The notes under the pieces were generated by a model that was not told the DNA's origin, searched no databases, and worked only from the letters and a program-made list of their open reading frames with translations. The translations under genes and the position numbers were made by a program. A stretch of 47,700 bases of DNA from a bacterium (GTDB taxonomy: Bacteria; JACRDZ01; JAQUKH01), in contig JAQUKH010000022.1 of NCBI GenBank assembly GCA_028719205.1, forward strand, positions 1 through 47,700, read 5' to 3'. Positions 1,645 through 38,325 of the stretch are shown piece by piece; within the stretch, counting starts at the first letter, position 1; every line of letters starts with the position of its first letter.

Positions 1645-1704
1645 GAAAAAAGTCAGAAAAAAACAGAACCACCACCTTTATCTTTTTTTGGAAAAGTGTA
1701 ATAT
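1645..1704 (+). promoter_or_regulatory. Island promoter module copy 1
   Basis: GAAAAAAGTCAGAAAAAAACAG; TTTATC 1677-1682; TAATAT 1699-1704. Confidence 0.8.
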
Positions 1705-1746
1705 AAAAAAGGAAATATGAAAATGGAATATAAAAAGGAGGAAAAA

Positions 1747-2121
1747 ATGAATCAAAAAAATTTATTAAAAATATTAAGCATTTTATTTATAGGAATATTT
1801 TTATGCCTGGAAGCAGGGTGCAAAAGCAGTTCAAATTCAACATCTTCCTCCGATACCAGTGGTTTTCAGGTAACATCTTCAGCGACTAACGGCCATACGC
1901 ATTCCGTTACAATATTATCTGCTGACCTTGCGAGTTTACCCGCCGCCGGTGCTACCTATACCAGTACTTCGTCCGGCGGTTCATATTACAGTTCCGGCCA
2001 TACGCATACCATTTTTTTGAGCCAGCAGCAGCTTACGGCAATTAATAGCGGTTCAACAGTTACTGTTACTTCTTCCGTCACTGAATCTCATACTCATGAT
2101 TGGGTGATTACCAAATCGTAA
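1747..2121 (+). CDS. Ser/Thr-rich lipoprotein with three HTH (His-Thr-His) motifs, putative metal binder
   Basis: AAGGAGG RBS 1735-1741; lipobox LEAGC; GHTH, GHTH, SHTH. Confidence 0.7.
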   Translation: MNQKNLLKILSILFIGIFLCLEAGCKSSSNSTSSSDTSGFQVTSSATNGHTHSVTILSADLASLPAAGATYTSTSSGGSYYSSGHTHTIFLSQQQLTAINSGSTVTVTSSVTESHTHDWVITKS

Positions 2122-2143
2122 CAAATAAATCAAAAAGGGATCT

Positions 2144-3457
2144 ATGATAGATTTCAGGAAGTATAAAAAAATAGAATTTCTAAAAACCGCGCAAGTTAAA
2201 AATATTCAAAATACTTTATTTAAACAACATTTGAACTATTTAACAAATAATTCACCATATTATTCTAAACTATTTAAAAAACAAAACATTAACATTAATA
2301 AATATTGCCTCGAAAATATAAGTGATTTACCTTTTACCGATAAATCCGATTTTGAAAAATATAACAGTGAATTCCTGGCAGTGCCTTACTCAAAAATATC
2401 TGATATTGTTTTATCCTCAGGAACAACCGGAAAGCCGACAAAAATAATGTATACTGAAAATGATCTTTTACGGCTTGCTTTCAATGAGGAAATTGCTTTG
2501 AAAAGATGCGGCATAAGCCGGGAGGATACGGTTTTATTAACCTGTACCATGGATCGTTGTTTTGTCGCGGGATTGGCTTATTATTCAGGAGCAAGAAAAA
2601 TCGGCGCGAAAACTTTAAGGAACGGCCTTAATAATTTTGAGAGCCACATGGATCTGATCAACAGAATGAAACCTACCGCTGTAATAGGTGTCCCGTCATT
2701 GATGTATAAATTAGGTTTATTTATAAAATCCAGAGGTATAGATCCAAAAGAAACATCAATACGAAAAATGATATGTATTGGAGAACCATTAAGGGACAGA
2801 GATCTTTCCTTGTTAAAAATCGGTGAATATCTTGAAAAAATGTGGAAGGCTGAAATATTTTCAACCTACGCGTCTTCTGAAACTATTACAACTTTTTGTG
2901 AATGTTCCGCTCAAAAAGGCGGGCATATGAATCCGGCCCTGGCCATTATGGAGATAGTAAATGATAAGGGAGAAACACTGCCACCCGGAGTGGCGGGAGA
3001 GATAGTTATGACGCCGCTTTTTATTGACGGAATGCCTTTATTGAGATTTAAAACCGGGGATATCAGTTTTTTTATAGATGCGCCTTGTCCCTGCGGGCGT
3101 TCTTCCGTCCGTATCGGGCCGGTCCTGGGAAGAAAAAAACAAATGATCAAATATTGCGGAACGACATTTTATCCTCAATCCATTAATTCTGTTTTAGACG
3201 GTATTCCGGCAGTTACTGAATATTATATGGTTGTTTCCAGTGATTTCGATCTTTCTGACAAGGTAAAGGTTTATGTTTCAACCAGTGATAAATCTTGTGA
3301 GGTAAATTATATTTCCGAGAAACTTAAGTCACATTTAAGAGTTAAACCTGAGGTTATTCTATCGGCTGAAGAAGACATAAAAAAGCAGGTTTATAACGGA
3401 AACTCAAGAAAACCCGTAAGATTCATAGACGAAAGGAAAACCGCCAATGAATTTTAA
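2144..3457 (+). CDS. Phenylacetate-CoA ligase family (ANL adenylating enzyme)
   Basis: SSGTTGKP P-loop, YASSE, RFKTGD, CPCGR motifs. Confidence 0.85.
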   Translation: MIDFRKYKKIEFLKTAQVKNIQNTLFKQHLNYLTNNSPYYSKLFKKQNININKYCLENISDLPFTDKSDFEKYNSEFLAVPYSKISDIVLSSGTTGKPTKIMYTENDLLRLAFNEEIALKRCGISREDTVLLTCTMDRCFVAGLAYYSGARKIGAKTLRNGLNNFESHMDLINRMKPTAVIGVPSLMYKLGLFIKSRGIDPKETSIRKMICIGEPLRDRDLSLLKIGEYLEKMWKAEIFSTYASSETITTFCECSAQKGGHMNPALAIMEIVNDKGETLPPGVAGEIVMTPLFIDGMPLLRFKTGDISFFIDAPCPCGRSSVRIGPVLGRKKQMIKYCGTTFYPQSINSVLDGIPAVTEYYMVVSSDFDLSDKVKVYVSTSDKSCEVNYISEKLKSHLRVKPEVILSAEEDIKKQVYNGNSRKPVRFIDERKTANEF

Positions 3458-5727: not shown

Positions 5728-5748
5728 AGGTTTTTCTGGAGCAGAATT

Positions 5749-6285
5749 ATGGTTTTTATCGGTGGGTTGGGTTTTTCCAAAATAACGTTTAACGCTATAG
5801 GCCTTGCGTTAAAAGATGCCGGGATGAATTGTCAATCAATACCCGGGCAGGATATCGGCATTATCGGTACAAATACCTCAGGATGCGTAAATTCAGATAT
5901 CGATTATTTAAATAATTATTTAAATGCTGGCCGGAATTCATACCAGAAAAAACTTTTTATTCATACCATGCCCTCCAGTTTCTTAAGTGAATCAGCGATT
6001 TATTACAAATTCCAGGGGCCTGTATTTTACATGACTATGTTAGACAGGTCATTAGCAGGGGCGGTAAAAATAGCATCCAATATGATTGAACTCGGAGAGG
6101 CATCTATTATGCTTGCGGGCTCATCAGAAGAAGAAAATTCATTGTATTTTGTTCTTGGCAGGGGAGCTTCTTTCCCCCGGGGAATCGTATGCGATATTGG
6201 TAAAGCTGAATTTATCTTTAACAGGAATCTGAATTTTCCTGAAATGGCAGAGGAGTTTCAAAAAATCAGGAAGGAGAAGAATTAG
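5749..6285 (+). CDS. Short ketosynthase N-terminal-like (chain-length-factor-like) protein
   Basis: DIGIIGTN, LFIHTMPS, AIYYKFQGP resemble KS N-terminal segments; no catalytic Cys/His set. Confidence 0.6.
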   Translation: MVFIGGLGFSKITFNAIGLALKDAGMNCQSIPGQDIGIIGTNTSGCVNSDIDYLNNYLNAGRNSYQKKLFIHTMPSSFLSESAIYYKFQGPVFYMTMLDRSLAGAVKIASNMIELGEASIMLAGSSEEENSLYFVLGRGASFPRGIVCDIGKAEFIFNRNLNFPEMAEEFQKIRKEKN

Positions 6286-7599
6286 ATGCGGGTTTTATTG
6301 ATCTCTTCAAATACCTCTAAGTCACCCTTTCCGGTTTATCCCATTGGCTGCAGTTTGATCTCAGCCGCGTTAACTTGCGCGGGCCATGAAACATCGATCT
6401 ATGATTTTTTAGAACGTAAACATTCATTTGATACGCTCGAGAAAGAAATAAAAAATGTTAATCCGGGGATAATAGGGATATCCATTCGAAATATTGACAA
6501 TACCAACATGCTTAATGAAAAATATTATATAGATGACATCAAAAATATCGTAAAAAAAATCAAAAATATTACAAATGTGCCGCTGGTTTTGGGAGGAGCG
6601 GGATTCTCGCTCATGCCTGATATTATTTTAAAAGAAACAGGGGCTGATTATGGAATAATCGGCGAGGGAGAATCCTTAATGGCTGATTTTGTCAATGACG
6701 CTGGCCGGGGAATTTTTCCCGGGGAGCGTATTATAAGAGGAAATAATAAAATTTCAGGGATAGAAATTCCACGGGCTGTATATGAGCCTGATTTGATGAA
6801 TTATTATTTGAGCAGGAAAAGTATTATCCCGATCCAGACTAAACGTGGATGTAACCACAGGTGTGTTTATTGCACTTATCCTTTTTTGGAAGGAACCAAA
6901 ATCCGTCCGAGAGATCCCGATTCAGTTATTGATGATATCGAAATGCTTGCTGAAAAATATAAAGTAAAATATATCTCTTTCAATGACGCGGTTTTTAATG
7001 ATGATGGAGGCCTTTATCTCGATCTTATGGAAAAAATGGAAAGGCGTAGCGTAAAAATATCATGGTTTAGTTTTTTTAAGCCGAAGGGCTTGACTAAAGA
7101 TATTATTGAATTGATGAAGCGGACCGGCCTTTCAGCCGCGGAGATCGGCTCGGACGCGGTTACAAACAGTACACTAAAGAAATTAGGGAAAGATTTTTCT
7201 TTTCAGAATATTTTAGATTGTAATAATTTGTTTAGTGGATCCGGGATCCCTGTCTCGCATTTTGTAATGTTTGGCGGGCCGGGTGAAACGAAGGAAACGG
7301 TACTGGAAGGGATTAAAAACATAAAAGCTTTAAAAAATTCTATCTTGTTTATTTTTATGGGGATAAGGATATTGCCAAATACTTCTCTTTCCAGTATCGC
7401 GATCGATGAAAAAATTATTGCGTCAAATACTGAATTACTCAAACCTGTTTATTATATTTCACCCGCGATTGATAAAGACTGGCTTAAGGAAACCCTGGCA
7501 AACGCTTTTTCTAATAATGAAAACTATATATTTCCTCCTGATGAAATTCAAATGGCAAAGGTATTTTTTAAATCCATAGAAAAAAATATTTCTCATTAA
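6286..7599 (+). CDS. B12-binding radical SAM protein (lipid-biosynthesis type)
   Basis: N-terminal PVYPIG and SIRNIDN cobalamin-domain motifs; RGCNHRCVYCTY; ketosynthase context. Confidence 0.85.
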   Translation: MRVLLISSNTSKSPFPVYPIGCSLISAALTCAGHETSIYDFLERKHSFDTLEKEIKNVNPGIIGISIRNIDNTNMLNEKYYIDDIKNIVKKIKNITNVPLVLGGAGFSLMPDIILKETGADYGIIGEGESLMADFVNDAGRGIFPGERIIRGNNKISGIEIPRAVYEPDLMNYYLSRKSIIPIQTKRGCNHRCVYCTYPFLEGTKIRPRDPDSVIDDIEMLAEKYKVKYISFNDAVFNDDGGLYLDLMEKMERRSVKISWFSFFKPKGLTKDIIELMKRTGLSAAEIGSDAVTNSTLKKLGKDFSFQNILDCNNLFSGSGIPVSHFVMFGGPGETKETVLEGIKNIKALKNSILFIFMGIRILPNTSLSSIAIDEKIIASNTELLKPVYYISPAIDKDWLKETLANAFSNNENYIFPPDEIQMAKVFFKSIEKNISH

Positions 7600-7603
7600 A
7601 GTA

Positions 7604-7663
7604 GAAAAAAGTCAGAAAAAAGCAGAACCATCACCTTTATCTTTTCCCGGGAAAGTGTAATAT
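7604..7663 (+). promoter_or_regulatory. Island promoter module copy 2
   Basis: GAAAAAAGTCAGAAAAAAGCAG; TTTATC 7636-7641; TAATAT 7658-7663; nearly identical to copy 1. Confidence 0.8.
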
Positions 7664-7689
7664 AAAAAAATAAAGGAAAAGGCTGGTTT

Positions 7690-12246: not shown

Positions 12247-12253
12247 AAAAAAT

Positions 12254-16466: not shown

Positions 16467-16582
16467 ATTTTCTTTTTCCGGGATATATTTTAGTTTTTAC
16501 TTACCTTAATTCTATTAAAATAATTTATTTTCTCAAAAGATTCTGCCGGTGTCAATTTAAATCTTATCTAAGAACCGGAGTG

Positions 16583-16642
16583 GTGAAAAGTCAATAAAAA
16601 ACAGATTCAGCCAATAGATATATTTTTCATAAAATATATAAT
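16583..16642 (+). promoter_or_regulatory. Island promoter module copy 3
   Basis: GTGAAAAGTCAATAAAAAACAG; TAGATA 16615-16620; TATAAT 16637-16642. Confidence 0.75.
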
Positions 16643-16663
16643 TATTCTAAAAGGTAAAATATC

Positions 16664-17290
16664 ATGTTTAACGATAGAAAAGACGCGGGAAAAAAATTGG
16701 CTAAAGCATTAGAAAAGTATAAAAATAAAAATGTTGTTGTGCTTGCCATACCGCGCGGCGGGGTGGAAGTCGGTTACGAGGTCGCGAAATACCTCAATGC
16801 TGAATTATCCGTAATAGTTTCACGAAAACTCCCTTCGCTGGAAAATCCTGAATCGGGGTTCGGAGCAATAGCGGAGGATGGCAGTCTTTTTATGTTTGAT
16901 TTCGCGAAAAGGATATATTCCACGGAAGTAATCAATAGAATTATTGAAGAACAAAAATCCGAGATAAAAAGAAGAATCCAATTATTCAGGAAAGGAAAGG
17001 CGCTTCCGGAGATTAAAGGAAAAACTGTTATACTTGTTGATGACGGGATCGCGATGGGTTCCACTATATACGCGTCAATACTTTTATGCAGAAATAAAAA
17101 AGCAGGGGAAATTATAGTCGCGGCTCCCGTATCAGGAATGGATACTAAAGAGATTATTAAAGAAGCGGCCGATGAAGTTATTATTCTGGAAACACCTGAT
17201 TCATTCCATGCCGTTGCTGAGTCTTATTTAAATTGGTATGATGTGCCGGATGAAGAGGTGATAAAGATATTGAACAAATTTGGTAATTAG
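16664..17290 (+). CDS. Phosphoribosyltransferase family protein
   Basis: FNDRKDAG, LAIPRGG, VILVDDGIAMGST PRPP loop. Confidence 0.9.
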   Translation: MFNDRKDAGKKLAKALEKYKNKNVVVLAIPRGGVEVGYEVAKYLNAELSVIVSRKLPSLENPESGFGAIAEDGSLFMFDFAKRIYSTEVINRIIEEQKSEIKRRIQLFRKGKALPEIKGKTVILVDDGIAMGSTIYASILLCRNKKAGEIIVAAPVSGMDTKEIIKEAADEVIILETPDSFHAVAESYLNWYDVPDEEVIKILNKFGN

Positions 17291-17292
17291 TG

Positions 17293-17353
17293 GAAATAAG
17301 TCATAAATAAGCAGACTCCGGCCATTTACATTATTTAAAAAAATAAATAATAT
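17293..17353 (+). promoter_or_regulatory. Island promoter module copy 4
   Basis: GAAATAAGTCATAAATAAGCAG; TTTACA 17325-17330; 17 bp; TAATAT 17348-17353. Confidence 0.8.
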
Positions 17354-17372
17354 TATGTGGGAGGATGTTATT

Positions 17373-18914: not shown

Positions 18915-20687
18915 ATGCTTGATGTTAAACGAAATAATCTCGACAGATCATTGTCTCCATATCTCATACAGCATGTATCAAATCCTGTCTGGTGGCAGGA
19001 ATGGAGCACGGAGATAATAAATGAAGCGGTTCGGGAAAATAAACCGCTATTTGTTTCCGTGGGTTACGCTACTTGCCACTGGTGTCATGTCATGGCTGCC
19101 GGCGCCTTTTCAGATAAAGAAACTGCCGATTATCTTAACAAACATTTTATCTGTATCAAGGTGGATCGGGAACAAAGGCCGGACATCGATAAATTATTAA
19201 TGAATTTTTTAACCGTACAGAGCGGAAGCGGCGGCTGGCCGCTTAATGTATTCCTAACCCCGGAGGTTCATCCTATATTCGCGCTTACTTTTGCACCGGC
19301 AAGTTCCAGCGGTTCAATGAAATCTTTTTTAACTATTGCCGGAAAAGTTTATGAATATTATCAAAACAATGTGGATAAAATTCAGCAATTTGAAGAAAAT
19401 GAAGAACAGCCAGGGGTTGTTGCTGAAGAATCTATAGTAAAAAAAATATCAGCTTATTTTGACCATGATAACGGCGGTTTTGGGAACAGGCAAAAATTTC
19501 CTCCGCATTCAACTTTATTATATCTTTTGTATTTTATCTGTGTTGATAATAACGCGGATGCTGTAACTATTTGTGTAAAAACACTCGATGCCATGCGTTT
19601 GCGGGGATTGAATGACCACTTACAGGGTGGTATTTTCCGTTACTGCGTCGGCCCTGAGTGGTCTATTCCCCATTTTGAAAAAATGCTCTATGACCAGGCT
19701 ATGGCTTTATGGTGTTATTCTTTAGCCTATAAGGTAATTAAAAAAAAAGAGTATATGTTGATGGCTGATAATATTATAAGGTGCCTTGAGGAATGTTTTG
19801 AACAGAATGGATTATTTATATCGGCGCATGACGCGGATACAGGACACGTGGAGGGAGCGGCCTATACCTGGAGTTATGATGAGCTGAAAAAGGTCCTTTC
19901 ACCCGGTGAATTTAAAAAGTTTAGTGATTCCTATCAAATTGAAAGGAGCGGTAATTTCGAAGGTAAAATACATCTGATCAGAAAAAATGATAATGATCTA
20001 TCAGAGATAGAGAATAAATTGCTTCGCATTCGCAAGCTTAGAGCTCAGCCTGAAAGTGATAATAAAATTCTTTGCGGACTGAACGCTTTAACCGCGATAG
20101 CAATGATACAGGCGGGACGGTATCTGGAAAAACCGCTTTATGAGGAAAAAGCATCAAAGATCACACACAGCCTGATGGATTTATTCTGGGACGGAAAGAC
20201 ACTTGGCCACTCCTTTTATAATGGCGCAACGCAAAAACAAAGTTTTTTATTTGATGCCGCCGCGATGCTTACCCTGATCAGTATGCTTTATGAAAATGAT
20301 GGATTCTGGGGCGCCATGATGGACACAATGATTGCCTGTGTACTATCATTTAAAGACTCCGGGAAATGGATCGAATCAAGAGCGGAAGATTTTCAAACAG
20401 TGTACGCTTCGTGGTCTGATAATCCTATTCCTTCCAGTATAGGCCTGGCAGAAATGGGTTTAACTCGCGCGGCTATGCTCACAGGAAAACCGGCAGGATC
20501 GAAACAATACAGGCAGCCGCTTCAATGCGATTTTTTTAATATCACTGAGATGATAAACAACGGCCTTTTCCATATAATTACAGCTGAAAATATTATTCCA
20601 TGGAGTAAATTACAGCCGAATACGCTTCAGAAACGCGGGAAAACCGAAACTGACTGCTACAAGGGAACATGCAAGATGTTTGGGTAG
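18915..20687 (+). CDS. Thioredoxin-domain protein, YyaL/DUF255 family
   Basis: SPYLIQH, CHWCHVM, KVDREQRPDID, GGWPL, PHFEKMLYDQA. Confidence 0.9.
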   Translation: MLDVKRNNLDRSLSPYLIQHVSNPVWWQEWSTEIINEAVRENKPLFVSVGYATCHWCHVMAAGAFSDKETADYLNKHFICIKVDREQRPDIDKLLMNFLTVQSGSGGWPLNVFLTPEVHPIFALTFAPASSSGSMKSFLTIAGKVYEYYQNNVDKIQQFEENEEQPGVVAEESIVKKISAYFDHDNGGFGNRQKFPPHSTLLYLLYFICVDNNADAVTICVKTLDAMRLRGLNDHLQGGIFRYCVGPEWSIPHFEKMLYDQAMALWCYSLAYKVIKKKEYMLMADNIIRCLEECFEQNGLFISAHDADTGHVEGAAYTWSYDELKKVLSPGEFKKFSDSYQIERSGNFEGKIHLIRKNDNDLSEIENKLLRIRKLRAQPESDNKILCGLNALTAIAMIQAGRYLEKPLYEEKASKITHSLMDLFWDGKTLGHSFYNGATQKQSFLFDAAAMLTLISMLYENDGFWGAMMDTMIACVLSFKDSGKWIESRAEDFQTVYASWSDNPIPSSIGLAEMGLTRAAMLTGKPAGSKQYRQPLQCDFFNITEMINNGLFHIITAENIIPWSKLQPNTLQKRGKTETDCYKGTCKMFG

Positions 20688-20747
20688 AAATAAGTCATAA
20701 AAAAGTAACTAGGTGCCATTTACACTTTAAGGGAATTATAATAATAT
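20687..20747 (+). promoter_or_regulatory. Island promoter module copy 5
   Basis: GAAATAAGTCATAAAAAAGTAA; TTTACA 20719-20724; 17 bp; TAATAT 20742-20747. Confidence 0.8.
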
Positions 20748-20753
20748 TATTGT

Positions 20754-21805: not shown

Positions 21806-24201
21806 GAAAAACATCTCTCGAAAAATATAGCCGGAAAAGAAAATTTGAGTTCACACCCGAACCCGCTGCCCTTAAGTTTGTGGTTCAAAAACACAACGCG
21901 AGAAGCCTGCATTATGATTTTCGCCTTGAGGCCGGCGGTGTGTTAAAAAGCTGGGCGGTTCCTAAAGGGATTTCTGATGATCCCGAAGTAAAAAGGTTGG
22001 CGGTCCAGGTTGAAGACCATCCCATCGAATACGCGGAATTTCACGGGGTAATTCCCGCGGGAAATTACGGGGCCGGTACCGTGGATATCTGGGATAAGGG
22101 AACGTATTTTGTTGATCCGGATTATGCGCGTTCTTCCAACGAACAAAGCATCCTTAATGGTTTAGAAAAGGGGCATATTAATTTTTTTTTGAAAGGTGAA
22201 AAACTTTCAGGGGAATATTCTCTGGTTCACATGAAAAACCCCGCCACGGCGGGCAGGCAGGATAAAGACAACAAGTGGCTGATTATAAAAAAAAAAGATT
22301 CGCACCTGATTGGGAAATCAGGTATAACCGATGATGAACTAAGATTATTAGGCGCGAATAAAGCTAAAATGCCGCTTTTTTTTAAACCTATGCTCGCGGA
22401 GGCGGCTGAAAAACCTTTTGACTCCGCGGATTGGTATTTTGAAATAAAGTGGGATGGTTACAGAGCCCTTGCATTTATCAAAAACGGCAAAGTGAAATTA
22501 TACTCACGCAACAAAAAATTATTTAACGCGTATTTCCCCGTGGTTATAGATTCTCTTTCAAGAATATCCGACGCTGTTATAGACGGTGAGATCGTTGTCC
22601 TTGACGAAACAGGAAGGCCTTCTTTCCAGTTACTGCAGGATTACATGAAATCCAGGGAGGGAATTCTGGTTTATTACATTTTTGATATCATTTATTACCG
22701 CGGTTTTGATTTAAGTAACCTTTCGTTGTCACAAAGATCCTTAGTTTTAAATAAAGTTTTTCCTGAATTGCCGCATCTTAAAATAAGCGGCCACGTTGAA
22801 AAAGACGGTATAAAGTTTTATGAATCCGCACGGACAAACGGCCTTGAAGGCATTATGGCTAAGCGCCTTGACAGCCTCTACCATCCGGGAGTCAGAAGCC
22901 GGGATTGGCTGAAACTAAAAATATTGAACAGGGAAGAGGCGGTAATATGCGGCTTTACCAAACCGCGTGGGTCGCGTGGTTTTTTCGGTTCATTAGTGCT
23001 TGGAATGTATAAAGATAAGAAGCTTGAGTTTATCGGCCAGGTGGGAACAGGTTTCGATGAATCAAGCCTTGAAGAGATTTACAAAAAGCTAAAACCTCTG
23101 GTAACAGGTATAAATCCTTTTGGGAAAGAGATAACCGGCCTGAGACAGGCCCGCCGCGGCGGGCAGGTCAGCCCGCCGTGGCGGGTTACCTGGGTAAGGC
23201 CTGAACTTTTATGTGAAATAAAATTTTCCGAGTGGACCAGGGAAGGGAAAATGCGCATGCCCGTTTTTCTCGGGCTCAGGCTTGATAAAAAAGCCCGGGA
23301 TGACCGTGTCCACCCAACCAATCTTCAAAAAATATTCTGGCCGGAAGAAAAATACACCAAGGGTATGCTTATTGAATATTATTACCGCGTCGCGCCATAT
23401 ATGCTAAAATATCTTAAAGACAGGCCGGAATCTATGAACCGTTTTCCGGATGGCATAGAAGGTGAAAGTTTTTATCAAAAGAATGCGGGAGAAATTGTGC
23501 CGGATTGGATACAAACAATTAAGATATTTTCTGAGAGTGAAAAAAAAGAAATAGATTATCTTGTTTGTAATGATGAAGTGTCGCTTATCTTTATGGTTAA
23601 CCTTGGATGCATAGAGATCAATCCCTGGAATTCGCGGATAAACAGCCTTTCAAATCCTGATTACGCGGTTTTTGATCTTGATCCTGAGGATATTCCTTTT
23701 ACAAAGGTGGTCGAAACAGCCCTTTTTATTCACAACCTGTTAGATGAAATAGGCGCGTCTAATTATTGTAAAACCTCAGGGGGAAGAGGCCTTCATATTT
23801 ATGTGCCCCTGAACGCGAGCTATTCATATGATCAGGCGCGCGAATTTGTTCATATTATAAGCCTGATAACAAATAAAAATATGCCCGGTATTACAAGCCT
23901 GGAACAGCCCCCTGAAAAAAGGGGAAAAAAGGTTTATCTGGATTTTCGACAAAACGCAAGGAGCAAAACCATGGCCGCGGTATACTCAATCCGGCCTCGT
24001 AAAGGTGCTCCTGTTTCGACGCCGCTTTTATGGAATGAACTTAAGCCGGATCTGTCTCCTCTTGATTTCACCATAAAAACAATTGATAAACGTATCAATG
24101 AAAAAGGAGATTTATGGGAAGGCCTGCTCAGGAAAAATATAGACATGAATAAATGCCTCGAAAACTTGTATAAGCTTTTTCCAGGCGAAAAAAGTCAATA
24201 A
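21802..24201 (+). CDS. ligD: DNA ligase D (phosphoesterase-ligase-polymerase)
   Basis: FVVQKHNARSLHYDFRLE, EIKWDGYR, EGIMAK, FDLDP, KTSGGRGLH. Confidence 0.95.
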   Translation: MRKTSLEKYSRKRKFEFTPEPAALKFVVQKHNARSLHYDFRLEAGGVLKSWAVPKGISDDPEVKRLAVQVEDHPIEYAEFHGVIPAGNYGAGTVDIWDKGTYFVDPDYARSSNEQSILNGLEKGHINFFLKGEKLSGEYSLVHMKNPATAGRQDKDNKWLIIKKKDSHLIGKSGITDDELRLLGANKAKMPLFFKPMLAEAAEKPFDSADWYFEIKWDGYRALAFIKNGKVKLYSRNKKLFNAYFPVVIDSLSRISDAVIDGEIVVLDETGRPSFQLLQDYMKSREGILVYYIFDIIYYRGFDLSNLSLSQRSLVLNKVFPELPHLKISGHVEKDGIKFYESARTNGLEGIMAKRLDSLYHPGVRSRDWLKLKILNREEAVICGFTKPRGSRGFFGSLVLGMYKDKKLEFIGQVGTGFDESSLEEIYKKLKPLVTGINPFGKEITGLRQARRGGQVSPPWRVTWVRPELLCEIKFSEWTREGKMRMPVFLGLRLDKKARDDRVHPTNLQKIFWPEEKYTKGMLIEYYYRVAPYMLKYLKDRPESMNRFPDGIEGESFYQKNAGEIVPDWIQTIKIFSESEKKEIDYLVCNDEVSLIFMVNLGCIEINPWNSRINSLSNPDYAVFDLDPEDIPFTKVVETALFIHNLLDEIGASNYCKTSGGRGLHIYVPLNASYSYDQAREFVHIISLITNKNMPGITSLEQPPEKRGKKVYLDFRQNARSKTMAAVYSIRPRKGAPVSTPLLWNELKPDLSPLDFTIKTIDKRINEKGDLWEGLLRKNIDMNKCLENLYKLFPGEKSQ
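22240..22261 (+). repeat. GC-rich palindromic mini-repeat within ligD
   Basis: CCCGCCACGGCGGGCAGGCAGG. Confidence 0.75.
23150..23185 (+). repeat. Two GC-rich palindromic mini-repeats within ligD
   Basis: CCCGCCGCGGCGGGCAGG and CCCGCCGTGGCGGG. Confidence 0.8.
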
Positions 24202-24247
24202 AAAGAGGATTCAGCCAATTTACATTTTTTTACTTTCTTTATAAGAT
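24187..24247 (+). promoter_or_regulatory. Island promoter module copy 6 (overlaps ligD stop)
   Basis: GAAAAAAGTCAATAAAAAGAGG; TTTACA 24219-24224; 17 bp; TAAGAT 24242-24247. Confidence 0.8.
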
Positions 24248-24285
24248 AACAAAAAAGATATTGAACTAAAAAAAGGAGATTCAAC

Positions 24286-30014: not shown

Positions 30015-30070
30015 AGTATATATATTAACTTGTCTTAACAATATATATACTAAAATGTTAACTTTGTCAA
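30015..30070. promoter_or_regulatory. 12-bp inverted repeat (candidate operator) overlapping a minus-strand promoter
   Basis: AGTATATATATT-N13-AATATATATACT; minus-strand TTGACA at 30070-30065. Confidence 0.5.
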
Positions 30071-30099
30071 GCATTATTTTCAAAGTATAAAATTAAAGA

Positions 30100-30759: not shown

Positions 30760-30793
30760 AAGCCGCTTCTTAGCTGTATTCCTCATTAGGGTA

Positions 30794-30854
30794 GAAAAAA
30801 GTCAATAAAAAGCAGAATCAACACCTTTTTTTCTCAAAATAAAAAGTGTATCAT
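30794..30854 (+). promoter_or_regulatory. Island promoter module copy 7
   Basis: GAAAAAAGTCAATAAAAAGCAG; TATCAT 30849-30854; weak -35. Confidence 0.8.
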
Positions 30855-30895
30855 GAAAAAAGTAAAAAATAAATTTCACTAAAAAGGAGAGTAAT

Positions 30896-31504: not shown

Positions 31505-31569
31505 ACAGGCCTATATAAATTACTGAAATATTAAACAAATATATTATTTCATATTAATTAATTTAATAA

Positions 31570-31597
31570 TTGAAATCTTAAAATGGGGGAGTATAAT
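31570..31597 (+). promoter_or_regulatory. sigma70-like promoter of the regulator operon
   Basis: TTGAAA-16 bp-TATAAT, without the AAGTCA module. Confidence 0.55.
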
Positions 31598-31637
31598 TAA
31601 ACTGTATTATTACTAACAATAAAAAATGGAGTAATAT

Positions 31638-32369
31638 ATGCCGGATAAAATATTAATTGTGGATGATGATGAAGCTTTCAGGTCGGAGTTTAAAGAATTA
31701 TTTGATTATTATGATGTAATAGAGGCTTCGGATGGACAATCCGCTTTGAAATTATTAAAGTCGGCAAATGATATCGGCCTTATTCTTCTGGATGTAATGA
31801 TGCCGGGAATAAGCGGTATCGAGGTTTTAAAAGAGATAAAAAAGACGGATCCGGATGTAGGAATTGTGATTTTAACAGGTTATAGTTCAAAAGACTTGGC
31901 GATCAAGGCATTAAAAGGGCATGCTGATGATTATATTGAAAAACCGATAGACCTCAATAAAACAAGAGAAATTATTGAAAAGGCGTTTGAAAATAAACGG
32001 GGAGAAGATAAGATAAATACAGGAGATATACCGGGCAAGATAGAAAAAGTAAAAAGTTTTATTAAAAGGAATTGTTATAAAAAAACATCTTTAACAGATG
32101 TGTCTAAAGCAGTTTGTCTCAGTCCGAAATATTTAAGCAGAATATTTAAAAACAGCACTGGTGTAAACTTTATCGAATATAAGTTGAGAATAAAAATGGA
32201 AAAGGCAAAGGAGCTTCTGGTTAAAACGGGTTACAACGTGAATCAGATCTCGGATAAATTAGGATATGAGAACGCTGAATCTTTTATCAGGCAATTCAAT
32301 AAACTTGCAGGTTCTACTCCCACGGAATACCGGAGGAAATATTTAAAAAAGAAAAATAAAAAGTTATGA
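31638..32369 (+). CDS. Response regulator REC-AraC HTH (YesN-like)
   Basis: ILIVDDD, LLDVMMP, KP; LSPKYLSRIFK..LGYENAESFIRQF..TPTEYR. Confidence 0.92.
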   Translation: MPDKILIVDDDEAFRSEFKELFDYYDVIEASDGQSALKLLKSANDIGLILLDVMMPGISGIEVLKEIKKTDPDVGIVILTGYSSKDLAIKALKGHADDYIEKPIDLNKTREIIEKAFENKRGEDKINTGDIPGKIEKVKSFIKRNCYKKTSLTDVSKAVCLSPKYLSRIFKNSTGVNFIEYKLRIKMEKAKELLVKTGYNVNQISDKLGYENAESFIRQFNKLAGSTPTEYRRKYLKKKNKKL

Positions 32370-34567
32370 AGAAAAGGTCAATAGAAACAAAAGATAAATT
32401 TATCAAAGAAAAAAAGCAAATCCAAAACGCGTTAAAGCAAGCTGAAGATAAATACCGTTCTATTGTTGAAACCGCCCAAGAGGGTGTATCGATTGTTAAT
32501 ATTGATGGAAAGGTCACATACGTGAATAAACGTATGGTAGAAATGTTAGGTTATACGGAACAGGAAGTGATCGGAGTATCTTTTTTAAAGTTTCTGGATG
32601 AGAAAGAGCAGACATATATTCAGGAAAATTTAGAACGAAGAAAAAGAGGAATCAGGGAGAGGCGTATTTTTAAAAAAGACGGTTCATCTCTCTGGGCGCT
32701 TGAATCTATCAGTCCTTTATTAGACGCGAATGGCAAAGTAAATGGACAGCTTATAATGATCACGGATATTACTGAGCGCAAAAAGGCGGAGGAAATACTT
32801 AGAAGAACAAACAATGAACTGGAATCCAAAACGAATCAGTATACGGCTGAATTGGAGGAAAAAAATAAACAACTGCAGAAGGAGGTCCAGGAGCGTTATT
32901 ATATGGAAAAACGCATTCTGGCGAGTAATACGATACTTAAATTATTGACTACATCATCCTCATATGGTAAATACCTGAATTCTGTAATTAAATATATACG
33001 TAACATAACTAATTGTAAATGTGTGGGTATAAGAATATTAAATGAGAAGGGGCAGATCCCATTTGAATCGTATATGGGTTTAAGCCAGGGATTTTGGGAA
33101 TCGGAAAACTTGCTTTCAATAAATAAAGACCAGTGTGTTTGTATCAGGGTAATTACAGGGAAGCCAAAAGTTCAAGATATTAAAGTGACGAGCCATGGCG
33201 GGTCATTTTATTGTAACCACCTAATAAAATTCATTAATGAACTTTCTGATGAAGAAAGAGCTGAATTCAGGAACGCGTGTGTCAAACATGGGTTTCATTC
33301 AATTGCCGTTATCCCGATCAACTACAAAAATAAAATATTAGGGGCAATACATATCGCGGATGAAAGAGCGGATATGGTACCTTTGAAGATAATAGAGATT
33401 ATTGAGCCATTAACACCTATGATCGGTGAAGGTGTTTACAGGTTCAGCCTGGATGGCAGGCGGGCTGAGGTTGAAAAAAAATTACGTGAGTCAAACGCGA
33501 TATTAGAAACAATATTCAGCAGCGCCAATTTTTTAATCGCTTATATGGACCAATATTTTAATTTTATCCGTGTTAACCAGATTTACGCGCAGTTACAGGG
33601 ATATACTCCTGAGTTCTTTACAGGGAAACATTACTTTGATCTGTACCCGGGTGAAAATGAAAGATCAATCTTTGAAAAAGTGGTTAAAACCGGCGAAGGA
33701 TATTCGACTTATTCCAAACCTTTGGGATCGGAAGGACAGCCCGGGCAGAAAATTACTTTTTGGGATTGGAGCATCCAGCCGGTAAAAGATTCCCATGGTA
33801 AAGTTAAAGGGCTTGTTTTCTGTTTGATAGATGTTACTGAACGGAAACGCGCTGAAGAAGAATTGATAAAGGCTCAAAAAAGAGAAATTGAATCAAAACG
33901 ACTTTCTGACATAGGCACTCTGGCCGCGATGGTTGCCCATGAATTACGTAATCCCCTGGGAGTAATTCAAATGGCCGCGTATAATATAGGTAAAAAATCC
34001 AAGGATGCATTTCTTAACAGCCATATAACAAATATAGAAAAAAAGGTATCAGAAAGCAATCAGATCATTAATAACCTTTTAAGCTATTCACGGATAAGAG
34101 TGCCGCACATTGAAAAAATAAATATTTTGAACTTGCTGGATGAATGCGTTAATTTAGCGGGGAAAAGATTTTTTAATTATGAAGTCACGGTTAACAGGAA
34201 TTTTAATTTGTTAAAAGAAGAATTTATTGAAGCGGATCCAATTCAGATGAGAGAGATTTTTATTAATATTTTAAATAACGCTTATCAATCCTTACCGGAA
34301 AAAAAAGGCAAAATAGAGGTAAATGCCGCGCGAAATGGTAATGACATTATTAATATAAACATTAAGGATAACGGGTGCGGGATAAACAAAGAAGATCTGC
34401 CAAAAGTTTTTGACACGTTTTTTACAAAAAAATCAAAAGGAACAGGTTTGGGACTTACTATTTGTAAAGAATTAGTGGCTATGCATGGCGGCGATATATA
34501 TATCGAAAGTGAACCCGGGGAAGGCACAAATATTAATATAAATCTGCCAATAAGAGGAAAGATATAA
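32366..34567 (+). CDS. Cytoplasmic PAS-GAF-PAS histidine kinase
   Basis: No TM; PAS/PAC, Cys-rich GAF-like segment, AHELRNPL, KGTGLGL; ATGA coupling to regulator. Confidence 0.88.
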   Translation: MKKRSIETKDKFIKEKKQIQNALKQAEDKYRSIVETAQEGVSIVNIDGKVTYVNKRMVEMLGYTEQEVIGVSFLKFLDEKEQTYIQENLERRKRGIRERRIFKKDGSSLWALESISPLLDANGKVNGQLIMITDITERKKAEEILRRTNNELESKTNQYTAELEEKNKQLQKEVQERYYMEKRILASNTILKLLTTSSSYGKYLNSVIKYIRNITNCKCVGIRILNEKGQIPFESYMGLSQGFWESENLLSINKDQCVCIRVITGKPKVQDIKVTSHGGSFYCNHLIKFINELSDEERAEFRNACVKHGFHSIAVIPINYKNKILGAIHIADERADMVPLKIIEIIEPLTPMIGEGVYRFSLDGRRAEVEKKLRESNAILETIFSSANFLIAYMDQYFNFIRVNQIYAQLQGYTPEFFTGKHYFDLYPGENERSIFEKVVKTGEGYSTYSKPLGSEGQPGQKITFWDWSIQPVKDSHGKVKGLVFCLIDVTERKRAEEELIKAQKREIESKRLSDIGTLAAMVAHELRNPLGVIQMAAYNIGKKSKDAFLNSHITNIEKKVSESNQIINNLLSYSRIRVPHIEKINILNLLDECVNLAGKRFFNYEVTVNRNFNLLKEEFIEADPIQMREIFINILNNAYQSLPEKKGKIEVNAARNGNDIININIKDNGCGINKEDLPKVFDTFFTKKSKGTGLGLTICKELVAMHGGDIYIESEPGEGTNININLPIRGKI

Positions 34568-34965
34568 TGCCTGCTAAAATATTTATAATTGATGATGATA
34601 AAGAATTATGTGAGGAAGTAATAGAGATCATGAGAGATGAGGGATATTTGATAAGCGCTGAATATGATGGTTTAAAGGGAAAAGAAGCGGTTGAAAAAGG
34701 TGGATATGATCTTTTGCTTTTAGATCTTAAACTTCCCGGGTTAAGCGGGTTTGACGTTCTTAAGCAGATAAGAGAAAAAAATATCAGGATAAAAGTTATC
34801 ATAGTAAGCGGAAGGCCTCAATATAACGGTTTATTTAACGAGAATGCAGTTTGTAAAAACAAGGATAAGGAAGAAGAAGAAATCCTGAAATTAGCAGACG
34901 GAATTATCAGCAAGCCTTTTGAGATAAAAATAATGTTGAATAAAATTAAAGAGCTTTTAACTTAA
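34567..34965 (+). CDS. Single-domain response regulator
   Basis: IIDDD, LLLDLKLP, SKPF. Confidence 0.88.
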   Translation: MPAKIFIIDDDKELCEEVIEIMRDEGYLISAEYDGLKGKEAVEKGGYDLLLLDLKLPGLSGFDVLKQIREKNIRIKVIIVSGRPQYNGLFNENAVCKNKDKEEEEILKLADGIISKPFEIKIMLNKIKELLT

Positions 34966-35007
34966 AATTATTTGTTATCTGCCTTCCATCATCTCTCCTT
35001 CTATTGA

Positions 35008-35068
35008 GAAAAAAGTCAGAATAAAGTAGAACTATCATCTTCATTTTAATGTAAAAAAAGTTTATTAT
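35008..35068 (+). promoter_or_regulatory. Island promoter module copy 8
   Basis: GAAAAAAGTCAGAATAAAGTAG; TTCATT 35040-35045; 17 bp; TATTAT 35063-35068. Confidence 0.8.
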
Positions 35069-35094
35069 TAAAATCAAAAAGGAGATTAACTTTT

Positions 35095-36573
35095 ATGAGG
35101 AGAATTATATTTTTAACTTTAATAATATGTTTTATTATTTCATCCTTTATTTTTGCTGACGAAGAAGAAATAATAGTAGAAGAAACAACCGGACAGGAAT
35201 TAATAGAAATGCCGGTGAAAAATGAAATTAAAGAAAGTCCGGTGGAATACGAAAAAGATTTCTTGGATTTTATAAAATTAAGAACGGAAAAGTTTGCTGA
35301 GCAGGATATGTGCGGGGAATGCCATTCTGATATATTTAAGCAATGGAAAGGTTCAACACACAGCAAAGCGTTTATTGATCCAATTTGGCGCGCGGCGACA
35401 AAACTATTTTACAGTGAATCTAAAACGATAGGGCAGGTCCTTGAAATTAAACTCTGCGTAAATTGTCATATACCGCTTGGTTTCACTTCTAATATTATTA
35501 ATCTTCCTATTGATAATTATAATAGATTAATGGAACTTCCGGAACAGGGGGCTTTCTGTAACTGGTGTCATAATTTAAAGGAGGCAGTAAATATTGGCGG
35601 TGAAGGATATATGGACGCAGATACAACAGAAGCGTATTCATCAACAATGCTTGGTCCTCGTGATGACCCAAGGTGGGAAAATCCTTCAAAAGATAACAAA
35701 GCTTTTCATCCTTCAGAATATTCAGAGTTTTACTCAAAATCCGATTTTTGCGGATTATGCCATAATATGTATCAGCCGGATAATAAACTTCCTATAGTGC
35801 AAACTTATGATGAGTGGAAGAAAAGTCCATATAACACAAACGACCCTAAAACTACTGTAACCTGCCAGGATTGCCATATGAGGCAAAAACCGGGAATTCC
35901 TGCCACAGGAAGCACGTTAAGGCCTGATAATTCAGGACAAGCGGCAGACGGAGGCCCGTACAGGGATAACATTTGGACGCATTATTTCGCGGGAGGAAAT
36001 TCAATAATTCCAAAACTTTTAGGGAGCGAAATGCATTCTTATCTGGCTATCGAAAAGCTCACAAATTCGGCCGGATTAGAGATAATCAGGGATAGTTCTT
36101 ATGAAAAAGGTAAAGCATCACAGATAAAAGTCAAAGTTACTAATTCCGGCGCGGGACATTATTTGCCGACAGGTATGACCGCGATCAGGCAAATGTGGCT
36201 TGATATGAAAATTACAGACCGGGATGGAATTATGATCTTCAGGTCCGGCGCGATGGATAAAGAAGGGAATTTTGACAAAAATACAATTCTCTTTAACACT
36301 GTTTTTGGAAATAAAAACGGAGAACCTGTAATGAATTTCGCGCTTGCGGATAAAATTCTTTATGACCATAGAATTCCTCCTATGGAATCTGTTATTGAAA
36401 ATTACAGTTTTATTATTCCGGAAAATACAGTTTTCCCGCTTAAGGTTGAAGTTATTTTAAAGTATCGCACCGCGTCACCGGACTTTGTTAAAAAGCTTCA
36501 AGTTGATAAAGTCTCGAATACAGAAATTCCCGTTATTGATATGGTAAGTTTGACGGAAAAAATAGATTTATAG
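35095..36573 (+). CDS. Exported pentaheme c-type cytochrome, paralog of 17373-18899
   Basis: CGECH, CVNCH, CNWCH, CGLCH, CQDCH; long identical stretches with the paralog. Confidence 0.9.
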   Translation: MRRIIFLTLIICFIISSFIFADEEEIIVEETTGQELIEMPVKNEIKESPVEYEKDFLDFIKLRTEKFAEQDMCGECHSDIFKQWKGSTHSKAFIDPIWRAATKLFYSESKTIGQVLEIKLCVNCHIPLGFTSNIINLPIDNYNRLMELPEQGAFCNWCHNLKEAVNIGGEGYMDADTTEAYSSTMLGPRDDPRWENPSKDNKAFHPSEYSEFYSKSDFCGLCHNMYQPDNKLPIVQTYDEWKKSPYNTNDPKTTVTCQDCHMRQKPGIPATGSTLRPDNSGQAADGGPYRDNIWTHYFAGGNSIIPKLLGSEMHSYLAIEKLTNSAGLEIIRDSSYEKGKASQIKVKVTNSGAGHYLPTGMTAIRQMWLDMKITDRDGIMIFRSGAMDKEGNFDKNTILFNTVFGNKNGEPVMNFALADKILYDHRIPPMESVIENYSFIIPENTVFPLKVEVILKYRTASPDFVKKLQVDKVSNTEIPVIDMVSLTEKIDL

Positions 36574-36633
36574 TGAAAAAGTCAGAAAAAAGGGGAAGCA
36601 GCCAATTTACATTTTTTTTAAAAAGTATATTAT
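36574..36633 (+). promoter_or_regulatory. Island promoter module copy 9
   Basis: TGAAAAAGTCAGAAAAAAGGGG; TTTACA 36606-36611; TATTAT 36628-36633. Confidence 0.8.
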
Positions 36634-36672
36634 ATTAAAAAAATCAGAATCAAAAAGGAGAAGAAAACTATT

Positions 36673-37038
36673 ATGAGAAAAAAAGTGATGATCATAGATG
36701 ATGACAAGGTATTTTTAGAGGAACTTAATGAGGTTCTAATTTCAGGCGGATATGATGTTGTTACTGTTAATGATCCGGTTTTAGCTTTTAATATGGTTGA
36801 TAAAACAAAACCGGATGTTATTCTGGTCGACATGAAAATGCCTTCGATGAGCGGGTTTGAAGTCGCGAATGAATTAAAAAATTTTTTAGGATATGATTTT
36901 ATCCCTATTATAGGGATGAGCGGATTTTATAGAGATAACGACATATCGTTAATGAATATGTGCGGTATTCAAAAGTGCCTTAATAAACCGTTTCGTCCGT
37001 TAGATGTAATTTATAATATTGAGAAAGTAATGGGATGA
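36673..37038 (+). CDS. Single-domain response regulator
   Basis: IIDDD, LVDMKMP, NKPF. Confidence 0.88.
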   Translation: MRKKVMIIDDDKVFLEELNEVLISGGYDVVTVNDPVLAFNMVDKTKPDVILVDMKMPSMSGFEVANELKNFLGYDFIPIIGMSGFYRDNDISLMNMCGIQKCLNKPFRPLDVIYNIEKVMG

Positions 37039-37065
37039 GATATTATCCCCGCCGGTGACAATCTT

Positions 37066-38244
37066 ATGAAAAAGGAAGATATTAACACTCTAGTCGTCGA
37101 GGATAATCCCGGGGATCTCAGGCTGGTCTCTGAGATGCTTCGGGAGAGCCGCATACCGGTCTTTCGCGTTACACATGCCGGTACATTAGAGGATACGCTG
37201 AAGATACTTGGCAAGGAGAAACCGGATATCATATTGCTCGATCTGGATCTTCCTGACAGCTGCGGACTTGAGAGCTTAAGGGAGATTGTTAAGCTGGCGC
37301 CGTGGATTCCTATTGTTGTATTGACCGGTGTGGATGATGAAAATTTGGGGATCGAGGCAATACAGAACCAGGCCTCCGATTATCTGGTAAAAGGGAAAAT
37401 AAATGTAGGCATGCTTGTGCGAAGTATAAGATACTCCATGGAACGGAAGGTAATGGAAGAAGTTTTAAGAAGAGACAGGGAGATGCTGGAAAAGCTTGTA
37501 AATGAAAAAGCCCGGGAGCTTTTAAACGTTCAGAAAGGGATGGAACAAGCTAAACGCCTTACCGATATAGGCACGCTCGCGGCAACAGTCGCCCACGAAT
37601 TGCGCAATCCCCTGGCGGTGATAAACGTTGTATCCTATAATCTGAAGCGGAAAATAAATGATCCCGATCTTAAAAAGCAAATTCATATTATTGAAAATAA
37701 AGTAATGGAGAGTGATCAGATCATAAATAATCTCTTATTTTACTCCCGGTTGAGAAAACCCTTCTTTGAAAATGTTAATATTCAAAAAATACTCAGCGAG
37801 GTTATCGAGTTAATTAAATTCGATACGAAAAATATTAAAAAAGCCAGGATAACCGCGAAATGTGATCCCATAATGAATACTGCGTTTGAGGCCGATCCTT
37901 TACAGCTGAAAGAGCTTTTTATCAATATTGTGAACAATTCTTTTGACGCGCTAGCCGATAAAAAAGGCGCGATTGAAATTATTGCCAAGCCTGATATTAA
38001 TAAGAACGGCGCTTTAATTTATATTAAGGATAACGGATCAGGGATAGACAGTGAAAATTTAAGTAAGATCTGGGAACCGTTTTTTTCCACAAAGTCCAAG
38101 GGAACAGGGCTGGGATTGAGTGTGTGCCGTCAGATCATCCTTCTTCACAACGGGACTATAGATATAAAAAGTGAAAAGGGAAAGGGTACAACCGTGATCG
38201 TTGGATTACCATGTAAACAGATTTTTTTCAGGAATTCATCATAA
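37066..38244 (+). CDS. Hybrid REC-histidine kinase, paralog of 10717-12246 without PAS
   Basis: VVEDNPGD, AHELRNPL, STKSKGTGLGL. Confidence 0.9.
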   Translation: MKKEDINTLVVEDNPGDLRLVSEMLRESRIPVFRVTHAGTLEDTLKILGKEKPDIILLDLDLPDSCGLESLREIVKLAPWIPIVVLTGVDDENLGIEAIQNQASDYLVKGKINVGMLVRSIRYSMERKVMEEVLRRDREMLEKLVNEKARELLNVQKGMEQAKRLTDIGTLAATVAHELRNPLAVINVVSYNLKRKINDPDLKKQIHIIENKVMESDQIINNLLFYSRLRKPFFENVNIQKILSEVIELIKFDTKNIKKARITAKCDPIMNTAFEADPLQLKELFINIVNNSFDALADKKGAIEIIAKPDINKNGALIYIKDNGSGIDSENLSKIWEPFFSTKSKGTGLGLSVCRQIILLHNGTIDIKSEKGKGTTVIVGLPCKQIFFRNSS

Positions 38245-38264
38245 TTTAAAGAAATAATAAAACG

Positions 38265-38325
38265 GAAAAAAGTCAGAAGAAAGTGGCATTAGCCAATTCA
38301 CATTTTTCAGGAGAAAGCTTATTAT
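38265..38325 (+). promoter_or_regulatory. Island promoter module copy 10
   Basis: GAAAAAAGTCAGAAGAAAGTGG; TTCACA 38297-38302; 17 bp; TATTAT 38320-38325. Confidence 0.8.

Follow-up and report, generated by a model that had tools for sequence, protein, structure and literature searches.

The window analysed here, a 47,700-nt stretch of contig JAQUKH010000022.1 (assembly GCA_028719205.1; positions 1 to 47,700) from a bacterial genome designated G000, carries ten copies of a promoter module in which a conserved A-rich block lies directly upstream of a -35/-10 pair. All ten copies lie on the + strand, and an open reading frame (ORF) on that strand directly follows each of them in the 3' direction. 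We examined the module, the promoters that share it across the genome, and a response regulator encoded downstream of copy 7 that probably reads it. Superoxide reductase is abbreviated SOR, and REC denotes the receiver domain. The ten copies and the terminator closing the module-rich stretch are:

1641..1710, + strand: module copy 1 (operator block, -35 and -10), 44.4 bits, 5' of a 134-aa ORF and a lipid-like operon
7599..7671, + strand: module copy 2, 45.1 bits, 5' of genes for a DUF6529-cytochrome c and GH15
16579..16650, + strand: module copy 3, 48.9 bits, 5' of a phosphoribosyltransferase-domain gene
17289..17356, + strand: module copy 4, 48.8 bits, 5' of genes for a multihaem cytochrome and a thioredoxin-like DUF255 protein
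20684..20753, + strand: module copy 5, the weakest, 34.4 bits, 5' of a 61-aa ORF, Ku and LigD
24187..24255, + strand: module copy 6, 51 bits, overlapping the last LigD codons, 5' of SOR, LUD-domain, DUF1499 and rubredoxin-like genes
30791..30861, + strand: module copy 7, with a poor -35 (TTTTTT), 5' of a haem-SOR fusion gene and then the regulator operon
35007..35076, + strand: module copy 8, 40 bits, 5' of a multihaem cytochrome gene (492 aa)
36574..36641, + strand: module copy 9, 49.8 bits, 5' of a stand-alone receiver gene
38263..38331, + strand: module copy 10, 53.5 bits, 5' of 64-aa and 140-aa ORFs without known family
39124..39165, + strand: predicted intrinsic terminator closing the module-rich stretch, a 13-bp GC-rich hairpin followed by a T-run, read from the sequence

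Scoring the module profile unfiltered at every position of the window returned exactly these ten matches (34.4-53.5 bits; next best 11.2 bits) and none to the right of 38331. The copies had been proposed in a sequence-only reading of the same DNA, and all ten were recovered on the + strand at the starts given there. The same holds for its AAGTCA core, which is invariant in 10/10 window copies, for the two A-tract-plus-G units 11 bp apart, for the -35-like hexamer 25 bp after the G of GTCA (module positions 33-38, counting the first G of that reading as position 1) and for the -10 at +47/+48 (module positions 55/56-60/61). It had also seen no copy after the terminator at 39124, in agreement with a last match that ends at 38331. 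The extent it assigned to the module contained the core but was too short, as the block begins 2-3 bp further upstream with GTG and includes a conserved AGCCAAT adjoining the -35. The octamer AAAAGTCA occurs 14 times in the window compared to 2.56 expected occurrences, and 0 of 100 shuffles reached 14. A generic sigma70 scan of the window listed the predicted -35/-10 pairs of copies 5, 6, 9 and 10, with those of copies 7 and 8 absent among the 60 rows listed; since this scanner was too noisy in AT-rich DNA (75 found versus 59 +/- 8.6 expected), we did not use it as evidence.

A 40-column position weight matrix (PWM), seeded with the ten window copies and iterated over the whole 2.59-Mb, 68-contig G000 assembly, converged on 36 sites of at least 26 bits, the next best site scoring 16.1. 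Hits in random DNA had been named beforehand as a check on such a matrix; three shuffled genomes gave no site of at least 18 bits. The regulon had been described as island-wide, and this description did not hold: only ten of the 36 sites lie in the window, the other 26 being spread over 15 other contigs (C8 has eight of them within its first 24 kb, and 14 further contigs share the remainder), and the module recurs in other phyla as well. At 33 of the 36 sites, a co-oriented ORF starts 63-135 nt after module position 1. The three sites without such an ORF are C18 2403, C14 21502 and C8 12447+, the last of which is a member of a back-to-back divergent pair. Three such pairs, 7-36 bp apart, were seen in G000 (C8 12440-/12447+, C8 15751-/15787+ and C3 69996-/70022+), and this bidirectional arrangement recurs in two relatives (locus L038 of G001 and L041 of G005). 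Half of the modules (18/36) lie near the starts of contigs C22 (1-38331) and C8 (1-24078), where they point away from the contig ends, with opposite senses. These contigs are possibly adjacent and would then form one module-dense region of about 65 kb.

Position-wise information over the 36 sites delimited a conserved block of ~45 bases, from -2 to about +42 in module numbering, with the consensus rGTGGAAAAAAGTCA-ww-AAAAAG-yGGA-wty-AGCCAATT. A4, C10 and A11 are invariant in 36/36 sites, and G8, G19, G22, C29 and C30 are conserved. The sub-sites GTGG, GTCA, GyGG and GCCA follow each other every 10-11 bp with A-tracts between them and end at the -35, while the flanks and the -35/-10 spacer are at background conservation. 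Shifted against itself, the block was most self-similar at 10-11 bp, with a further peak at 20-21 bp. Because the 21-bp shift alone gave p=0.19 against column shuffles, we describe the block as four phased sub-sites with an ABAB flavour (..GG, ..CA, ..GG, ..CA) and not as an established 2 x 21 repeat. A strict direct-repeat model (2 x 21 bp) lacks statistical support by itself and was kept as a reading only. In the usual promoter numbering, the conserved block extends from about -69 to -30. An activator site "near -60" had been suggested, which was right as to a site upstream of the promoter, but rather than a point, the site is a block that covers about 35-40 bp and reaches from about -69 to the -35 hexamer.

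Could the copies resemble each other merely through recent copying, as a dispersed repeat, whether a promoter cassette that moves or was duplicated, or a structured RNA? Two pairs are alike over the full 75 nt including the spacer (the copies at 1645 and 7604, and those at 16583 and C8 11967), and some targets are paralogous (two SORs, two cytochromes and two phosphoribosyltransferases (PRTases)). Conservation across the set is nevertheless position-specific, falling to background in spacer and flanks, the block occupies orthologous positions in other families and phyla, the orientation is gene-ward in 33/36 sites, and no inverted ends were seen. A structured RNA or known RNA family was rejected, with 0 Rfam matches in the window and four tested copies folding no better than shuffles (z 0.19, 0.07, 1.36 and -0.81). 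These observations largely refute the dispersed repeat, to which we assign next to no probability.

The hexamers that follow the block differ in quality. When aligned with one gap allowed, the -10 reads TAnnnT at 33/36 sites and matches TATAAT at 4.75 of 6 positions on average, with at least 5/6 matches in 24/36. The -35 averages 3.72/6 matches; 6/6 is reached at no site, 14/36 sites have three or fewer, and only the first two T are conserved. The spacer measures 16 nt at 13 sites and 17 nt at 23 sites. With a -10 and spacer of housekeeping type, a sub-optimal -35 and a block at fixed distance, the module promoters appear to fit an activator-dependent sigma70 (RpoD) type. A regulator bound to the block might instead mainly repress or act dually, with the promoters being intrinsically active and held off or modulated by its phosphorylated or unphosphorylated form. 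A -35 with 5/6 matches, found at 12/36 sites, and a -10 with at least 5/6, found at 24/36, mean that many promoters could be constitutive, and the phased A-tracts could support DNA looping or wrapping. However, the block lies wholly upstream of the -35, which it abuts, and covers neither the -10 nor the start. In addition, a -35 with only its first two T conserved and at most 3/6 matches at more than a third of the sites is typical of activator dependence, and a distance to the -10 that is precise to one base across phyla corresponds to a requirement of face-of-helix activation. We therefore consider repression or dual action by the bound regulator distinctly improbable.

Target functions were assigned from Pfam domain matches. 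The operon behind module 1 (window 1717-7599) encodes a 134-aa protein without assigned function, an AMP-dependent ligase, a radical-SAM/SPASM protein, a beta-ketoacyl synthase (KS), a truncated KS-like protein of 178 aa and a B12-binding radical-SAM protein, and is possibly a modified-lipid pathway. Copy 9 is followed on the + strand (36673..38244) by genes for a stand-alone REC protein (36673-37038) and a REC-histidine kinase hybrid (37066-38244). Targets outside the window include a ferritin-like protein with cytochrome c and REC; two Hsp20 with a winged-helix protein; a cyclopropane-fatty-acid (CFA) synthase; DUF481 with MscL; a Bax-inhibitor-like with a UDG-family protein; a DNA-alkylation repair protein with a glyoxalase; DUF2934 with dienelactone hydrolase (DLH) and GSDH; DUF1540; SHOCT with GalT-like and GT2 proteins; DUF1328; two ferredoxins; a 2-oxoacid:ferredoxin oxidoreductase with a multihaem cytochrome; cellulose synthase; an OEP/HlyD efflux set; DUF6600 with a glutaredoxin gene downstream; a B12-binding radical-SAM protein; and several ORFs without family. 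Several receiver-only proteins and hybrid kinases lie inside the regulon. Most targets beyond these signalling genes appear to be protective, among them two superoxide reductases, rubredoxin-like, ferritin/Dps-like, glutaredoxin and thioredoxin-like proteins and Ku-LigD, as well as the DNA-alkylation repair and UDG-family proteins, both Hsp20, CFA synthase, MscL, the Bax-inhibitor-like protein, multihaem cytochromes, GH15 and cellulose synthase. Given this predominance of predicted protective genes, a general-stress or oxygen-defence programme of an anaerobe is the likeliest role of the regulon.

The candidate reader of the module is encoded between copies 7 and 8, in an operon with the following features:

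31570..31597, + strand: predicted stand-alone sigma70-like promoter TTGAAA-16-TATAAT (11/12), from a consensus scan only, in the 133-bp gap before the REC-AraC gene
31638..32369, + strand: REC-AraC response regulator, 243 aa (Response_reg with HTH_18/HTH_AraC), the proposed binder of the module
32366..34567, + strand: PAS-rich histidine kinase, 733 aa, the proposed cognate sensor, adjoining the regulator gene here; a histidine kinase gene is its neighbour in most ortholog loci, too
34567..34965, + strand: receiver-only protein at the end of the regulator operon, from its domain match and synteny

In the C-terminal part of the regulator, residues 156-234 matched HTH_18 (E=2.1e-23), and a match to HTH_AraC (E=2.7e-13) was also obtained. 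Both exceed the curated cut-offs, which by domain criteria places the predicted protein in the AraC/XylS family of transcription factors. Its receiver matched Response_reg (E=1.5e-27), and DDD at 9-11, the Asp in LLDVMMP, and the ILTG and EKP motifs could be read from the translation. The receiver is thus canonical in having the DDD pocket, the acceptor Asp, the Thr and the Lys, so that the protein also classifies as a two-component response regulator by receiver criteria. Its nearest solved relatives are 12aw, a hybrid two-component REC+HTH protein, and 3lsg, the helix-turn-helix (HTH) part of YesN; the alignment covers the HTH part of the solved hybrid two-component REC+AraC protein. Only one further AraC-family gene is present in G000. 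The promoter at 31570-31597 may provide basal expression of the regulator independent of module 7. On the other side of copy 7, an 854-aa multihaem cytochrome with an FtrD-like segment is encoded on the - strand (27396-29960), adjoining a gene for a LexA-like S24 peptidase (30100-30759); neither gene has a module in the unfiltered profile scan of the window.

We compared the distribution of module and regulator in the phylum, which comprises only six species-level genomes (G000-G005). Besides the 36 sites of G000, 11-13 module matches each were found in G001, which belongs to the same genus, and in G005 from another family, and none at E<=1e-4 in G002 (same genus, 92% complete), G003 and G004. 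In 35 unrelated genomes there were weak matches at most (best E 2e-4). Of the five relatives, exactly G001 and G005 have full-length orthologs of the regulator (identity 70% and 69%, with E 2e-108 and 2e-102), encoded on contigs with module copies, and only receiver-domain matches were obtained in G002, G003 and G004. Because regulator presence matches module presence, the REC-AraC protein is favoured as the reader. Orthologous targets, namely CFA synthase, DLH, rubredoxin-like, REC-Hsp20, DUF1540, ferredoxin and TTHB210-like-PRTase genes, keep their module in G001 and G005. Apart from G000, the CFA-synthase target (L009:4827-5948) was found in G005 alone, a genome of another family (75% identity), and is missing from the same-genus G001; this patchy pattern, like that of window 20000-39900 described below, looks like transfer.

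The same comparison bears on the sigma factors. G000 encodes RpoD, a FliA/WhiG-type sigma, two extracytoplasmic-function (ECF) sigmas and one divergent sigma of 244 aa, and no RpoS or RpoH equivalog was found in this genome. The divergent sigma is present in G001, G002 and G004, not in G003 or G005, one ECF sigma in G001, G002 and G005, and the other ECF sigma in all five relatives. None of these three shares the distribution of the module, and they were rejected as its readers; the FliA/WhiG-type sigma has a known promoter type unrelated to the module. That RNA polymerase itself reads the block with no dedicated factor, either through an UP-element-like site for the C-terminal domain of its alpha subunit or as the extended promoter of an alternative sigma, is highly improbable for these and further reasons. 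An A-rich block with A-tracts phased 11 bp apart upstream of the -35 would suit such a reading, as would the unassigned specificity of the divergent sigma. Against it stand the housekeeping type of the -35/-10 pair with its 16-17 bp spacer, the absence of detected modules from a same-genus genome that keeps RpoD and from the 35 unrelated genomes, and, leading us to discard the UP element in particular, the invariant C10 and conserved G/C sub-sites, the small number of 36 promoters and the restriction to certain lineages.

Relatives of the regulator were then sought in one genome per species, which yielded about 50 full-length orthologs, with 30 distant matches serving as controls. The orthologs share about 48-65% identity with the G000 protein (two share 36-38%, and two are cut at a contig end), and most are encoded in metagenome-assembled genomes (MAGs) labelled as Candidatus Omnitrophota. 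Scanning with a module profile trained on G000 only gave 44 module matches. All of them fell in the ortholog loci (525,541 bases), of which 31/50 had a match; the 30 control loci, with 318,894 bases, had none (Fisher one-sided p=2e-9, with kin not independent). The consensus across phyla retains the block and its distance to a TAtaAT -10. Gene order is likewise kept, the regulator gene being followed by histidine kinase, REC, module and stand-alone REC, often then by SOR, and the pairing of module and receiver, as in copy 9, is the most widely conserved target. In several ortholog loci a module also precedes the regulator gene. In compact loci, the module comes directly after the gene for the regulator or the kinase, and no further DNA-binding gene separates the two. 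Four of five Omnitrophota genomes with the regulator hold 4-10 dispersed module copies. We also sampled 101 genomes evenly across the phylum to which G042 belongs, calling modules at E<=1e-4 and the regulator at E<=1e-40; five genomes had the module and seven the regulator, three having both and 92 neither (odds ratio 34.5, one-sided p=0.002, phylogenetically uncorrected).

On the strength of the observed motif, its statistics, geometry, orientation and conservation, and its co-occurrence and synteny with the regulator gene, we infer with a probability of about 0.68 that the REC-AraC regulator (31638-32369) reads the module as an activator of composite promoters, forming a 36-promoter stress/oxygen-defence regulon. 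To these observations the reading would add binding, activation rather than repression, a dimer stoichiometry, a signal and a physiological role. The core of the original proposal, an activator site at sigma70-type promoters that co-regulates operons, was supported by the fixed geometry, the combination of good -10 and mediocre -35, the gene-ward orientation, the conservation and the co-occurrence with one response regulator; the regulon is, as shown above, wider than the island, and the proposal had named no regulator.

Several observations weigh against the REC-AraC regulator as activator of such a regulon. No module was found in the examined flanks of 19/50 ortholog loci. Four of the 101 genomes (G044, G053, G087 and G106; 41-56% identity) have the regulator without the module, and two have module-like matches without a clear ortholog of the regulator, a looser search for which returned only receiver matches in G077 and a 38%-identical AraC domain in G093. 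Incomplete MAGs and the single-genome model may explain part of these mismatches. The 12 promoters with the 5/6 -35 TTTACA might fire without an activator, and with the 21-bp shift at p=0.19 the tandem dimer is one reading among several. The label "stress" rests on domain names, and about one third of the first genes have no family match. Finally, G002 has no DNA match to window 20000-39900, and G001 matches it in 14 segments: regulator, module and targets travel together.

As this set travels as accessory DNA, co-occurrence alone does not discriminate between the REC-AraC protein and another co-travelling factor. The module could be a real promoter element bound by a different DNA-binding protein, from the same accessory set or the chromosome, with the REC-AraC gene merely one of the targets. 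The regulator operon does lie downstream of a module, and its co-location with the module could be explained by its own status as a target. Regulator and targets are also gained and lost as a group, and the six mismatched genomes of the 101-genome sample fit this explanation, too. It is disfavoured mainly because of compact synteny: in distant MAGs, compact loci consist of regulator, kinase, module and receiver only and leave no room for a second DNA-binding gene. The LexA-like gene beside copy 7 (30100-30759), considered as an alternative regulator, has no homologue in any of the 50 ortholog loci and was rejected. Furthermore, alternative sigmas do not co-vary with the module, and the length of the site, its phasing on one face and its proximity to the -35 suit regulators with an AraC output. 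A different binder is thus unlikely in our view.

If the REC-AraC regulator is the activator, its phosphorylated form would bind the operator of ~35-40 bp through four G/C sub-sites that lie on one helix face at intervals of 10-11 bp. It would probably do so as a tandem dimer, in which each DNA-binding domain sets two HTH units in successive major grooves. The operator abuts or overlaps the mediocre -35, with the good -10 following 16-17 bp on, and the promoter-proximal protomer may touch the -35 region and recruit RpoD-RNA polymerase to this combination of an adequate -10 and a sub-optimal -35. The adjoining PAS histidine kinase would presumably sense and supply the signal. Module 7 may add positive feedback on the regulator operon, on top of the possible basal promoter at 31570-31597. 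The presence of several receiver-only proteins and hybrid kinases among the targets suggests that the phosphorelay is branched, or that they act in feedback or as phosphate sinks.

Apart from the modules and the regulator operon, two further regions of the window were noted. A divergent signalling block on the - strand (10717-16466), encoding a 1261-aa Cache/HAMP/multi-PAS kinase, a REC protein and a REC-PAS hybrid kinase, breaks up the + strand array; no module belonging to it was found in the unfiltered profile scan. At 40092-42144, FeoB is encoded by two ORFs that overlap: the first (40092-40724) covers the N-terminal GTPase and the second (40699-42144) the Gate/FeoB_C membrane part. The gene is either naturally split or frameshifted. 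It is preceded by a Fur-family gene and followed by a DtxR/FeoA fusion gene.

Class II activators of the AraC/XylS family (XylS at Pm, AraC at araI1-I2, RhaS and MelR) bind tandem direct repeats next to the -35. The module resembles their sites in its operator of about 35-40 bp, from about -70 to the -35 hexamer on one helix face, in a possible ~21 bp repeat period (here p=0.19 alone) with two sub-sites per unit, and in the pairing of a weak -35 with a good -10, and the candidate regulator carries the same HTH_18/AraC double helix-turn-helix output. In contrast, its predicted input is a phospho-receiver instead of a ligand-binding/dimerisation domain, the site sequence is unrelated to any known to us, and the regulon is large and heterogeneous (36 promoters) where theirs is one catabolic pathway. 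MarA and SoxS are single-domain monomers that are regulated by abundance and each bind one 20-bp box. As with MarA/SoxS/Rob of Enterobacteria, an AraC-family domain is combined here with dispersed stress/oxidative-defence promoters and a degenerate asymmetric box at fixed distance and orientation to the -35; unlike theirs, the site is about twice as long and the candidate regulator would be controlled by phosphorylation. In content, the target list resembles the RpoS, SigB and EcfG regulons, with Dps/ferritin-like proteins, small heat-shock proteins, cyclopropane-fatty-acid synthase, MscL, DNA repair, and small membrane proteins or proteins without known function; it also shares with them the inclusion of several receiver-only proteins and hybrid kinases. 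Control, however, is apparently by an activator with the housekeeping sigma, no sigma of this kind with a matching distribution having been found.

The architecture of the candidate regulator, REC with an AraC-type HTH, is that of the hybrid two-component systems of Bacteroides and of YesN-type regulators. Those systems run single sugar-utilisation loci with periplasmic sensing, whereas the kinase here is a soluble-looking PAS protein, the targets are protective genes and the lineage consists of Omnitrophota-like uncultured phyla. For the REC+AraC hybrid regulators of Bacteroides, the sites have been predicted to consist of direct repeats with a 20-21 bp period (PMC3878776), the same period as that of the GG/CA/GG/CA pattern of the module. 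Full-text literature searches, whose coverage does not extend to subscription journals, returned no description of the motif or the regulon, in line with the sequence-only reading, which knew of none. Hence, the type of system, an AraC-output response regulator acting on sigma70 promoters through tandem sites, is familiar, while the subfamily, the operator and the regulon appear to be undescribed.

These analyses yield a candidate regulator-operator pair, a 36-promoter regulon and homologous smaller sets in other phyla, in Omnitrophota-like candidate phyla whose gene regulation is almost unstudied and which have no standard cultured model. Its predictions, including transcript starts, critical bases and the phospho-acceptor residue, are testable in vitro or in E. 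coli without culture of the organism. The regulon lends a shared stress/oxygen-defence context to a dozen proteins of unknown family and may serve as a marker set for physiological state in metatranscriptomes. A broader proposal, which we put forward tentatively and regard as possible rather than probable, is that Omnitrophota and neighbouring phyla run general stress and oxygen survival through a phospho-controlled AraC-type activator, together with a PAS kinase and a set of receiver-only partners, that works with the housekeeping sigma on a long operator of four sub-sites, not through an alternative sigma. If true, these bacteria would have solved the problem of a general stress response in a distinct way, in which an accessory, horizontally shared module of regulator and targets decides which members of the lineage tolerate oxygen or starvation.

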